Positions 9,696 through 11,355 of a stretch of 24,000 nucleotides of DNA are shown one piece after another; position 1 is the stretch's first letter; each line of letters opens with the position of its first letter. A model generated the notes under the pieces. That model had not been told where the DNA came from. It saw nothing but the letters and a program-made list of their open reading frames with translations, and searched no databases. The DNA comes from Methanospirillum sp. (GTDB taxonomy: Archaea; Halobacteriota; Methanomicrobia; Methanomicrobiales; Methanospirillaceae), in NCBI GenBank assembly GCA_035561295.1, contig DATMXW010000029.1, positions 12,669 to 36,668 on the forward strand, written 5' to 3'. The position numbers were made by a program, and so were the translations under genes.

Positions 9696-9980
9696 ATGAC
9701 AGAAAATAATGAACACTCTGATTCGCCGCAATTGTGCGGTTGCTCAGAAACCTGTAGAATCGAAGCGATTCTAACCATTGATGAACGAGGACAGATGGTC
9801 ATTCCTAAAGAGGTCAGGGAAAATACCGGCATTAAACCGGGGGAAAAACTTGCTCTGACCTCTTGGAGCCGTGATGGAGAGGTCTGTTGCCTGGTTTTAA
9901 TCCGGACCGGACGGCTCTCAGAAATGGTCAAAGATATGCTCAGCCCTCTTGCTGAGTCGATTTTGAAGAGAGAACTATGA
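9696..9980 (+). CDS. AbrB/MazE/SpoVT-type DNA-binding domain protein, Cys-rich, translationally coupled to hgcA
   Basis: 94 aa. The SpoVT/AbrB-like core is IDERGQMVIPKEVRENTGIKPGEKLAL. Five Cys: C14-x-C16-x3-C20 (LCGCSETC) and the pair C64-C65 (GEVCCLV). Its stop TGA (9978-9980) overlaps the hgcA ATG (9977-9979). Confidence 0.8.
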   Translation: MTENNEHSDSPQLCGCSETCRIEAILTIDERGQMVIPKEVRENTGIKPGEKLALTSWSRDGEVCCLVLIRTGRLSEMVKDMLSPLAESILKREL

Positions 9981-11047
9981 CTATGGAACCCTGCTCATGC
10001 ACCTGCACTGAACCTACACCTGATGCTGGATCATCCTGCTGCCAGACCGGGGAAAACAGACTACCCGTATCAGAAGTGATGAACACCACGAGCACACTAA
10101 CTATTTCGGATCATGGTGATCACCTCATCGCACGCCTTGGTCTGATGCGGATGAACCATCTTGTCACCCCCGGCCTGTATCGACTGGGAAGCCCTGATGC
10201 TGATTCACCGGTTTTTGTCTCTGCAAATTATACCCTTAGTTTTGATGCACTCAGGTCGGCACTTACCGGATGTGATGCCTGGATCCTGGTCATCGACACC
10301 AAAGGGGTGAATGTCTGGTGTGCGGCGGGTAAAGGAACCTTCGGGACCTCAGAGATCGTCAATCGAATCGCCCTGACCAGACTTGAGACCATGGTTTCAC
10401 ACCGGCACCTGATCGTTCCCCAACTGGGAGCACCAGGTGTTTCTGCCAGGGAGGTTTTGAGACAGTCAGGATTTTCAGTCGAATTCGGACCAGTCCAGGC
10501 CCGGGACCTTCCGAAGTATCTGAAAACTCACCAGGCAACCCAGGAGATGAGGACCGTCACCTTTCCACTGCGGGATCGGATCACCCTGATCCCGGTTGAA
10601 CTGATGCAGGTCATCAAAATTGCCATTGTGGCAATTATCCTTGCAGCGTTCCTGATAAGCGTGGACCTCGCATGGCGAATCCTTCTTTCCATCCTTGCAG
10701 GAACAGTTCTCTTCCCGATACTACTCCCCTGGATCCCGGTGAAGGACTTTACCATCAAAGGGTATCTCCTTGGACTGGTGGTCTTCCTGCCTACCACGGC
10801 CCTTACTGTCATCACAAATCAGGGGGATCTGCTTATCAGAATCATGATGGCTGCCGGAGAACTCCTCATCTTCCCGGCTGTTGTTGCATACCTGGCATTG
10901 AATTTTACCGGGGCAACTCCTTTTACTTCACGGACCGGGGTGAAGACCGAGATCCGGCGATATATCAGGCCTTTGGTGGGATCATTTGCCGGGGGGATAA
11001 TCCTGGCGATGCTCAGTGGAGTGGCCAGACTGGTGATAGTATCATGA
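9977..11047 (+). CDS. hgcA: mercury methylation corrinoid protein HgcA
   Basis: Diagnostic cap-helix motif NVWCAAGK at nt 10310-10333 (Cys115), within ...SPVFVSANYTLSFDALRSALTGCDAWILVIDTKGVNVWCAAGKGTFGTSEIV...PQLGAPGVSA.... The C-terminal half has about 5 TM helices. The hgcB ferredoxin follows immediately. Confidence 0.93.
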   Translation: MTMEPCSCTCTEPTPDAGSSCCQTGENRLPVSEVMNTTSTLTISDHGDHLIARLGLMRMNHLVTPGLYRLGSPDADSPVFVSANYTLSFDALRSALTGCDAWILVIDTKGVNVWCAAGKGTFGTSEIVNRIALTRLETMVSHRHLIVPQLGAPGVSAREVLRQSGFSVEFGPVQARDLPKYLKTHQATQEMRTVTFPLRDRITLIPVELMQVIKIAIVAIILAAFLISVDLAWRILLSILAGTVLFPILLPWIPVKDFTIKGYLLGLVVFLPTTALTVITNQGDLLIRIMMAAGELLIFPAVVAYLALNFTGATPFTSRTGVKTEIRRYIRPLVGSFAGGIILAMLSGVARLVIVS

Positions 11048-11355
11048 ACAGATGGAATTCGTACACACGGACAACCCTGCAATATAACCCTGAAAAGTGC
11101 ATAAACTGCAGATTATGCCTCCAGGTATGCCCTCACCAGGTTTTTCAGCAAGGCACCAAAAAAGTGATCCTCTCTCTCCCTGAATCATGTATGGAATGCG
11201 GAGCATGCCAGGTGAACTGTCCTACTGAAGCGATCACCGTTGAGAGCGGAGTCGGTTGTGCATATGCTATGATCAGGGGAGTGCTGAACGGAACCGGTGA
11301 GGAGAGCTGTGACTGTGCTGGGGACGGAGATACTCCATCAGGCTGCTGTGGATAA
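11044..11355 (+). CDS. hgcB: mercury methylation ferredoxin HgcB (2x[4Fe-4S])
   Basis: 103 aa. The start ATG at 11044 overlaps the hgcA TGA (ATGA), with a GGTGAT SD-like sequence 6 nt upstream. Two CX2CX2CX3CP motifs (CINCRLCLQVCP, CMECGACQVNCP), an extra conserved Cys72 (GVGCAYA) and a C-terminal vicinal Cys pair (SGCCG). Confidence 0.93.
   Translation: MNRWNSYTRTTLQYNPEKCINCRLCLQVCPHQVFQQGTKKVILSLPESCMECGACQVNCPTEAITVESGVGCAYAMIRGVLNGTGEESCDCAGDGDTPSGCCG

Follow-up and report, generated by a model that had tools for sequence, protein, structure and literature searches.

The genes at positions 9696 to 11355 of a 24,000-nucleotide (nt) stretch of Methanospirillum DNA, here called the window, very probably form a three-gene, translationally coupled unit, hgcC-hgcA-hgcB, that encodes a mercury-methylating enzyme system. 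To our knowledge, hgcAB is the sole known genetic determinant of microbial methylmercury formation. An earlier note on this DNA had identified the hgcA-hgcB pair, and that pair is almost certainly a genuine hgcAB system. The note missed the third gene, hgcC, which lies immediately upstream of hgcA in the same orientation. The stop codon of hgcC and the start codon of hgcA share the sequence ATGA at 9977-9980, and hgcA and hgcB share a second ATGA, the overlap that had been described, at 11044-11047, with the hgcB start codon at 11044. Because both junctions are overlapped in this way, the three genes appear to be translationally coupled. The unit consists of the following genes:

9696 to 9980, forward strand: hgcC, HgcAB-associated protein of 94 amino acids with an AbrB/SpoVT/MazE-type swapped-hairpin fold (NF040962, PF04014)
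9977 to 11047, forward strand: hgcA, corrinoid protein of mercury methylation, 356 amino acids (NF040863; 100% identity to HWQ65600.1)
11044 to 11355, forward strand: hgcB, ferredoxin with two [4Fe-4S] clusters, 103 amino acids (NF040864; identical to HWQ65601.1)

Curated models support the identification of both HgcA and HgcB. In the profile search that the earlier note had proposed, here carried out with NCBIfam models, HgcA scored 420.6 bits against the HgcA equivalog model NF040863 (cut-off 275, E = 4e-126), with residues 34-348 aligned to profile positions 1-323 of 325. HgcB scored 113.2 bits against NF040864 (cut-off 99, E = 3.8e-33). Pfam returned only the generic PF03599 and Fer4 families for the two proteins. 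The gene order is also that of other hgcAB loci: among the 80 reference loci taken from the matches listed in a scan of reference genomes, hgcB is the next gene after hgcA in 77. Comparison with GenBank revealed 100% matches between the window proteins and four consecutive entries from a Methanospirillum sp. metagenome-assembled genome, HWQ65599.1 to HWQ65602.1, named HgcAB-associated protein, HgcA, HgcB and TMEM175 family protein, respectively. As the exact proteins already carry these names, the hgcAB genes of the window are known at the level of routine annotation, in agreement with the earlier judgement that the pair is not novel.

The following segments were recognized in HgcA:

9977 to 10075, forward strand: Cys-rich N-terminal tail, residues 1-33, with C6, C8, C10, C21 and C22; predicted to be disordered
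10076 to 10546, forward strand: segment matching the corrinoid-binding region (PF03599, phmmer, Foldseek)
10310 to 10333, forward strand: cap-helix signature NVWCAAGK, residues 112-119, read from the sequence; Cys115 is the proposed lower-axial cobalt ligand
10589 to 11041, forward strand: transmembrane domain of five helices, residues 205-355 (hydropathy and AlphaFold2)

All gene features that had been described were recovered at their positions. hgcA begins at 9977, the context quoted around the signature, SPVFVSANYTLSFDALRSAL...DTKGVNVWCAAGKGTFG, is exact in the translation, and NVWCAAGK starts at residue 112, which makes its cysteine residue 115. Within the signature N112, W114, C115, A116, A117, G118 and K119 are invariant across 59 aligned HgcAs. 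The corrinoid-binding segment is covered by PF03599 over residues 63-153, and phmmer aligned residues 63-184 to 2h9a_A, 4c1n_A and 4djd_C. The expectation of about five C-terminal transmembrane helices was borne out by five hydrophobic segments in a Kyte-Doolittle plot and by five long helices in the AlphaFold2 model (residues 205-226, 229-252, 258-280, 285-311 and 319-355), for which the predicted local distance difference test score (pLDDT) is mostly above 90. This model was built on 59 homologs and has a mean pLDDT of 86 and a predicted template modelling score of 0.79.

The N-terminal tail of HgcA had not been listed previously. Five cysteines fall within the first 22 residues of the protein. 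It lies outside the NCBIfam model and has pLDDT values below 50 over residues 1-25. A tail with 2 to 8 cysteines is found in 59 of 59 aligned methanomicrobial-type HgcAs, and it may serve as an extra Hg(II) hand-off site, similar to the tail of HgcB. Conservation was also examined along the whole protein. At least 90% conservation across 58 HgcA relatives is seen at 132 alignment columns, and the window HgcA departs from these at six (V111, Q174, T203, S238, V255 and R327), none of which is in the motif. HgcA thus shows no sign of decay.

HgcB matches its earlier description as a protein of 103 amino acids with two CX2CX2CX3CP motifs (CINCRLCLQVCP, residues 19-30, and CMECGACQVNCP, residues 49-60), an additional Cys72, located 13 residues beyond C59, and a C-terminal CC pair at residues 101-102. 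For each of the eight cluster cysteines, and likewise for C72, 75 of 76 relatives have the same residue, and a CC near the C-terminus is present in 43 of the 76. HgcB also contains a CxC, C89 and C91 (nt 11308-11316), that was absent from the earlier list. C89 is kept in 74 of 76 relatives, almost level with the functionally essential Cys72.

We considered whether the HgcA-like protein could be a non-methylating paralog, either a CFeSP (corrinoid iron-sulfur protein) of the AcsC/CdhE type or one of the fused HgcAB-like proteins. Several database relatives of HgcA are labelled ‘carbon monoxide dehydrogenase’, and the fused HgcAB-like model (NF043039) gives HgcA a substantial 221.7 bits. However, both this score and the 53.6 bits obtained by HgcB are under that model's cut-off of 285. 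The CFeSP gamma subunit model (NF003195) gives HgcA 74.3 bits, under a cut-off of 306, and the match is confined to residues 63-187, which correspond to the last 125 model positions. The five-helix membrane domain of HgcA is missing from CFeSP. HgcA and HgcB are not fused, as they are encoded by two separate open reading frames that do not share a reading frame, the first of them closed by the stop codon at 11045-11047.

The alignment of the cap region provides a further distinction. phmmer aligned HgcA residues 63-183 to residues 320-440 of 2h9a_A, the Carboxydothermus CFeSP large subunit, and placed Cys115 on Thr374, an equivalence that we take to be the original basis of the Cys-on cobalt model. 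The CFeSP large subunit (AcsC/CfsA; 2h9a, 4djd) thus resembles HgcA in having a corrinoid-binding Rossmann-like domain, homologous to HgcA residues 63-184, with a cap region that aligns to that of HgcA position by position. It differs in the threonine found in place of Cys115, in its N-terminal [4Fe-4S] domain and TIM barrel, and in lacking a membrane domain. The earlier note had named two findings that would contradict its identification, a grouping with the CFeSP or fused paralogs and a cap-helix motif that does not align. Paralogy was judged here by scores against curated NCBIfam equivalog models relative to their cut-offs, and neither finding emerged: of the three models only that for HgcA has its cut-off exceeded, and Cys115 is in register with Thr374. 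With both rival models below their curated cut-offs, and a cysteine where CFeSP has a threonine, we rejected identity with CFeSP or the fused paralog, which is exceedingly improbable.

Surveying known structures with Foldseek returned results in line with this assignment. The top match of HgcA was 9a0b_A, the 2020 integrative model of HgcAB from strain ND132 (41% identity over 327 columns, E = 3.5e-20), and 9a0b was the only HgcAB entry from the fold search. The next matches were CFeSP large subunits, over approximately 130 residues and with E-values of 1e-5 to 1e-7. A sequence search of the PDB returned CFeSP chains only for HgcA and generic ferredoxins only for HgcB, and no experimental HgcAB structure.

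The genetically characterized system is reportedly the HgcA and HgcB of Pseudodesulfovibrio mercurii (Desulfovibrio desulfuricans) ND132, described by Parks et al. in 2013. The window proteins share its architecture: HgcA combines a corrinoid-binding domain, including the cap region and its N(V/I)WCA(A/G)GK cysteine, with a membrane domain of five helices, and the gene next downstream encodes a two-cluster ferredoxin that has a conserved cysteine about 12 residues past the second motif and a CC at its C-terminus. The differences are an archaeal host, the extra 33-residue Cys-rich N-terminal tail of HgcA, a longer HgcB tail with the extra CxC, and the upstream gene: an ArsR-like regulator is reported in ND132 (PMC10349881), whereas the AbrB-fold hgcC is found here. 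Both ND132 proteins have been characterized genetically and biochemically (PMC7305189). Substitution of HgcA Cys93 by Ala or Thr abolishes methylation, as does truncation of the HgcA membrane domain; in HgcB, Cys73 is essential and full activity requires at least one of Cys94/95 (PMC7305189). The residues required in ND132, HgcA Cys93 and HgcB Cys73 and Cys94/95, all have counterparts in the window.

The steps by which the window proteins would act are those published for ND132 and M. hungatei. HgcA would be anchored in the membrane, with Cys115 in the NVWCAAGK cap region serving as the cobalt ligand (‘Cys-on’), a model whose mutagenesis support is summarized in PMC7305189. The cob(I)alamin form would take up a methyl group, the source of which in methanogens would be the Wolfe cycle, from which the methyl group in M. 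hungatei derives (PMC11494345). The methyl group would then be handed to Hg(II) to give CH3Hg+, and HgcB, as a ferredoxin with two [4Fe-4S] clusters, would re-reduce the cobalt. HgcB is the presumed cobalt reductant in the published system, with its tail proposed as the part that brings in Hg(II) and carries CH3Hg+ away (PMC7305189). In the window protein a flexible Cys-rich tail (C89, C91 and CC101-102), together with Cys72, could take up Hg(II) and pass on the product.

Judging from sequence, the hgcAB of the source organism probably methylates Hg in vivo. M. hungatei is a confirmed Hg methylator, and eight of nine hgcAB-positive methanogens that were assayed methylate Hg (PMC5893877). The window shares its genus with Methanospirillum hungatei JF-1, and its gene order with JF-1 and with other Methanomicrobia that are confirmed methylators (PMC5893877). 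On the side of difference, its HgcA is only 54-61% identical to its closest database relatives, from Methanospirillaceae, Methanospirillum and Methanoregula; because of this low identity we consider the window HgcA lineage to be divergent.

Several observations weigh against the reading of the unit as a mercury-methylating system. The next-best HgcA among 5.8 billion proteins is only 61% identical, and the source organism is known solely as a metagenome-assembled genome. Two near-invariant residues of HgcA are replaced: R174, an arginine in 57 of 58 relatives, by Q (nt 10496-10498), and F327, a phenylalanine in 53 of 58, by R (nt 10955-10957). The apo AlphaFold2 model does not contain a helix at residues 112-119, and its pLDDT drops under 50 at residues 116-118; the cap region may become ordered upon corrinoid binding only. 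Finally, one of the nine hgcAB-positive methanogens assayed did not exceed controls (PMC5893877).

The last of these observations also fits a different explanation, in which the genes are true hgcAB orthologs, yet no Hg methylation at a meaningful rate takes place in this organism. Their native role would be something else, for example a different methyl transfer that depends on a corrinoid, and Hg would be methylated as a side reaction or not at all. The literature discusses Hg methylation as perhaps a metabolic accident that brings no selective advantage, and reports that hgcAB carriers tolerate Hg no better than non-carriers do (PMC10349881, PMC7305189). The presence of an HgcC homolog ahead of an unrelated S-adenosylmethionine (SAM)-dependent methyltransferase in a Dehalococcoidales genome, described below, hints that the input to this regulator is more general than Hg. 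Against this explanation, every residue that mutagenesis has shown to be needed is kept in the window, as are the transmembrane domain and the ligands of the clusters, and the type species of Methanospirillum methylates Hg. We therefore regard the absence of meaningful methylation as unlikely. With hgcAB present, methylation by this Methanospirillum lineage is probable; this helps in inferring environmental risk and adds nothing conceptually.

The neighbours of the pair had been called unknown genes in the earlier note. For the upstream gene this does not hold, as its product belongs to a named family. HgcC scored 111.8 bits against NCBIfam NF040962 (‘HgcAB-associated protein HgcC’, cut-off 70), with further matches to the Pfam family MazE_antitoxin (PF04014) and an AbrB domain model. 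The AlphaFold2 model of HgcC has a pLDDT of 77.6, with residues 1-16 disordered, and its top Foldseek neighbours were SpoVT, pSSVx C68, AbrB-N and MazE, at modest E-values of 0.02 to 0.3. HgcC contains five cysteines, C14, C16, C20, C64 and C65. All 110 homologs compared keep the vicinal pair C64-C65, 98 of 109 have C20, and the disordered N-terminal tail contains 2-5 cysteines in 103 of 110. HgcC thus has the swapped-hairpin fold common to AbrB, SpoVT and MazE proteins, and differs from them in its invariant vicinal CC, Cys-rich N-terminal tail, long C-terminal helix and lack of a partner toxin.

About 23 of the 80 listed reference loci have a homolog of hgcC as the gene immediately upstream of hgcA. 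These loci are mostly archaeal, and they also include Syntrophobacteria, Syntrophales and Geothermincolia. Zhang et al. (2023) reported a gene for a ‘putative archaeal regulator’ directly upstream of hgcA, mostly in Methanomicrobia (PMC10349881), the same position that hgcC occupies. The words cysteine, palindrome, operator and promoter are absent from the text of that paper. In searches of the literature for regulators of hgcA or hgcAB, Zhang et al. was the only relevant source, and no description of the HgcC cysteines or of the DNA element presented below was found. A literature search for the name ‘hgcC’ together with hgcA gave nothing relevant and one unrelated paper.

The family names raise the question of whether the AbrB/MazE-like gene is an orphan type II antitoxin, or a generic small regulator that lies beside hgcA by chance and plays no functional part in the unit. 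In addition to the Pfam name MazE_antitoxin, HgcC has weak NCBIfam matches to PrlF and doc-partner antitoxins, several of its homologs are labelled ‘antitoxin PrlF’ by JGI, and PMC10349881 describes the upstream gene as toxin-antitoxin-associated. However, the neighbours of hgcC in the window are a divergent TPR gene and hgcA, with no match to a toxin family, and because no toxin gene adjoins it we rejected the toxin-antitoxin reading. The score against a dedicated HgcAB-associated family model, the recurrence of hgcC ahead of hgcA in both archaea and bacteria, the ATGA overlap and the invariant CC pair likewise argue for a functional part in the unit, and a chance neighbour is very unlikely.

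If HgcC is a DNA-binding protein, repeats in front of its own gene are the candidate binding site:

9663 to 9686, no strand assigned: candidate HgcC operator with three half-sites, TCAGAA at 9663-9668, TTCTGA at 9671-9676 and TCAGAT at 9681-9686 (repeat comparison)

The candidate operator precedes the hgcC start by 10 to 33 nt and lies within an imperfect palindrome with 17-nt arms at 9652-9687, and an additional distal TCAGAA is found at 9604-9609. The hexamer is strongly concentrated in the equivalent position of other loci. The 120 nt upstream of hgcC contain 28 copies of TTCTGA/TCAGAA in 2760 nt (10.1 per kb), compared with 109 in the 191,618 nt that make up the remainder of the hgcC loci (0.57 per kb) and with a mean of 1.7 and a maximum of 6 in composition-matched shuffles of the upstream regions. 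Of the 23 loci with hgcC, 16 have at least one copy in this upstream region and 9 have at least two. In loci without hgcC, the 120 nt upstream of hgcA contain 3 copies in 6480 nt (0.46 per kb), distributed over 2 of 54 loci. Fisher's exact test on the loci with at least one hexamer gave p = 2e-9.

The element typically reads TTCTGA-N3-TTCTGA or TTCTGA-N4-TCAGAA. It adjoins a TATAAATA box in Methanoregula-type loci and is positioned just 3' of a TTGACA box in bacterial loci. Loci with the element upstream of hgcC include L005, L007, L008, L009, L012, L022, L070, L033, L051 and L083-L085. Four further hgcC loci were obtained independently by exact protein look-up. One belongs to the closest relative of the window; the others are from Methanofollis tationis, a Dehalococcoidales genome and a Thermodesulfobacteriota contig. 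Each of the four has the element no more than about 60 nt from the hgcC start.

In the Dehalococcoidales sequence CP070842.1 (L084, 3001-4154), the HgcC homolog and an upstream TCTGA-TATA-TCAGA palindrome precede a gene for a SAM-dependent methyltransferase instead of hgcA. Because of this arrangement, the HgcC family may not be exclusive to hgcAB.

The presence of the element in front of hgcC suggests how the unit could be controlled. HgcC, presumably a DNA-binding protein in view of its AbrB fold, and one whose CC does not vary, most likely autoregulates hgcCAB by binding the TTCTGA/TCAGAA half-sites at 9663-9686, with the thiol chemistry of its cysteines as a plausible sensing input. A more specific version is tentative, and we place it somewhat short of an even chance. 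Here, HgcC would be a thiol-based sensor and autorepressor that binds as an AbrB-type dimer to half-sites overlapping the promoter or transcription start, and its CC pair and N-terminal cysteines would release the DNA when they bind a soft metal or metalloid, Hg(II) or As(III), or become oxidized. The CC of HgcC presumably occupies the position of a hydrophobic Ile-Ile pair in AbrB and MazE sequences, and because of this correspondence the cysteines could be partly structural.

Three points weigh against autoregulation through this element. The palindrome at 9652-9687 is only modestly unusual, as its score of 8, compared with a shuffle mean of 5.2, was reached by 14 of 500 shuffles. Many of the loci bearing the hexamer are from related Methanoregula-type genomes, such that the counts are not independent. 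Moreover, DNA binding by HgcC, the assignment of the operator and any response to metal are properties that we infer.

The poor prediction of methylmercury production by hgcAB copy number is the open question in the field, a question of how the genes are regulated. If the reading of HgcC as a sensor is true, control by HgcC would be the archaeal equivalent of the ArsR-like regulation that is reported for ND132, and the half-sites would provide a defined cis-element for predicting hgcAB expression. The HgcC cysteine pair and the upstream element are modest leads that make hgcAB regulation directly testable in archaeal-type loci.

The unit is bordered by the following features:

8513 to 9562, reverse strand: TPR gene, the upstream neighbour, divergent from hgcC
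9631 to 9638, forward strand: TATA-like box TTTATTAT, a possible archaeal promoter of hgcCAB as read from the sequence
11364 to 11368, forward strand: run of five T, 9 nt past the hgcB stop codon, a possible archaeal transcription stop
11416 to 12795, forward strand: gene for a TMEM175-like membrane protein of 459 amino acids with two PF06736 repeats, 60 nt downstream of hgcB

The divergent intergenic region upstream of hgcC is 133 nt long. A scan for bacterial promoters, which is uninformative for an archaeon, returned one sigma-70-like site, inside hgcB, compared with 5.4 expected in shuffles. At the other end of the unit, a scan between 11355 and 11416 with bacterial models found no hairpin-type terminator, the host being an archaeon. 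Oligo-T has a known role in archaeal transcription termination, and it is possible that the run at 11364-11368 ends hgcCAB before the TMEM175-like gene. That gene accompanies hgcAB in 0 of the 80 listed reference loci, and for this reason we do not count it as part of the hgc system. The TPR gene, the DUF1622 gene and the open reading frame at 13028-13798 do not recur near hgcAB in the same loci either, save for two weak TPR repeat matches. As none of these four genes recurs, all are placed outside the conserved unit.

The wider window contains three paralogous clostripain-family (Peptidase_C11) proteins of about 640-660 amino acids, encoded at 13836-15824, 15827-17755 and 20714-22657. Large TPR proteins are encoded among them (17777-19516), with more TPR genes at 7324-7989 and at 8513-9562. 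A cation-diffusion-facilitator metal efflux transporter (PF01545 and ZT_dimer; 4213-5166, reverse strand) is encoded next to a CHASE4/PAS sensor protein (5255-7015, reverse strand), some 5 kb away from hgcCAB.

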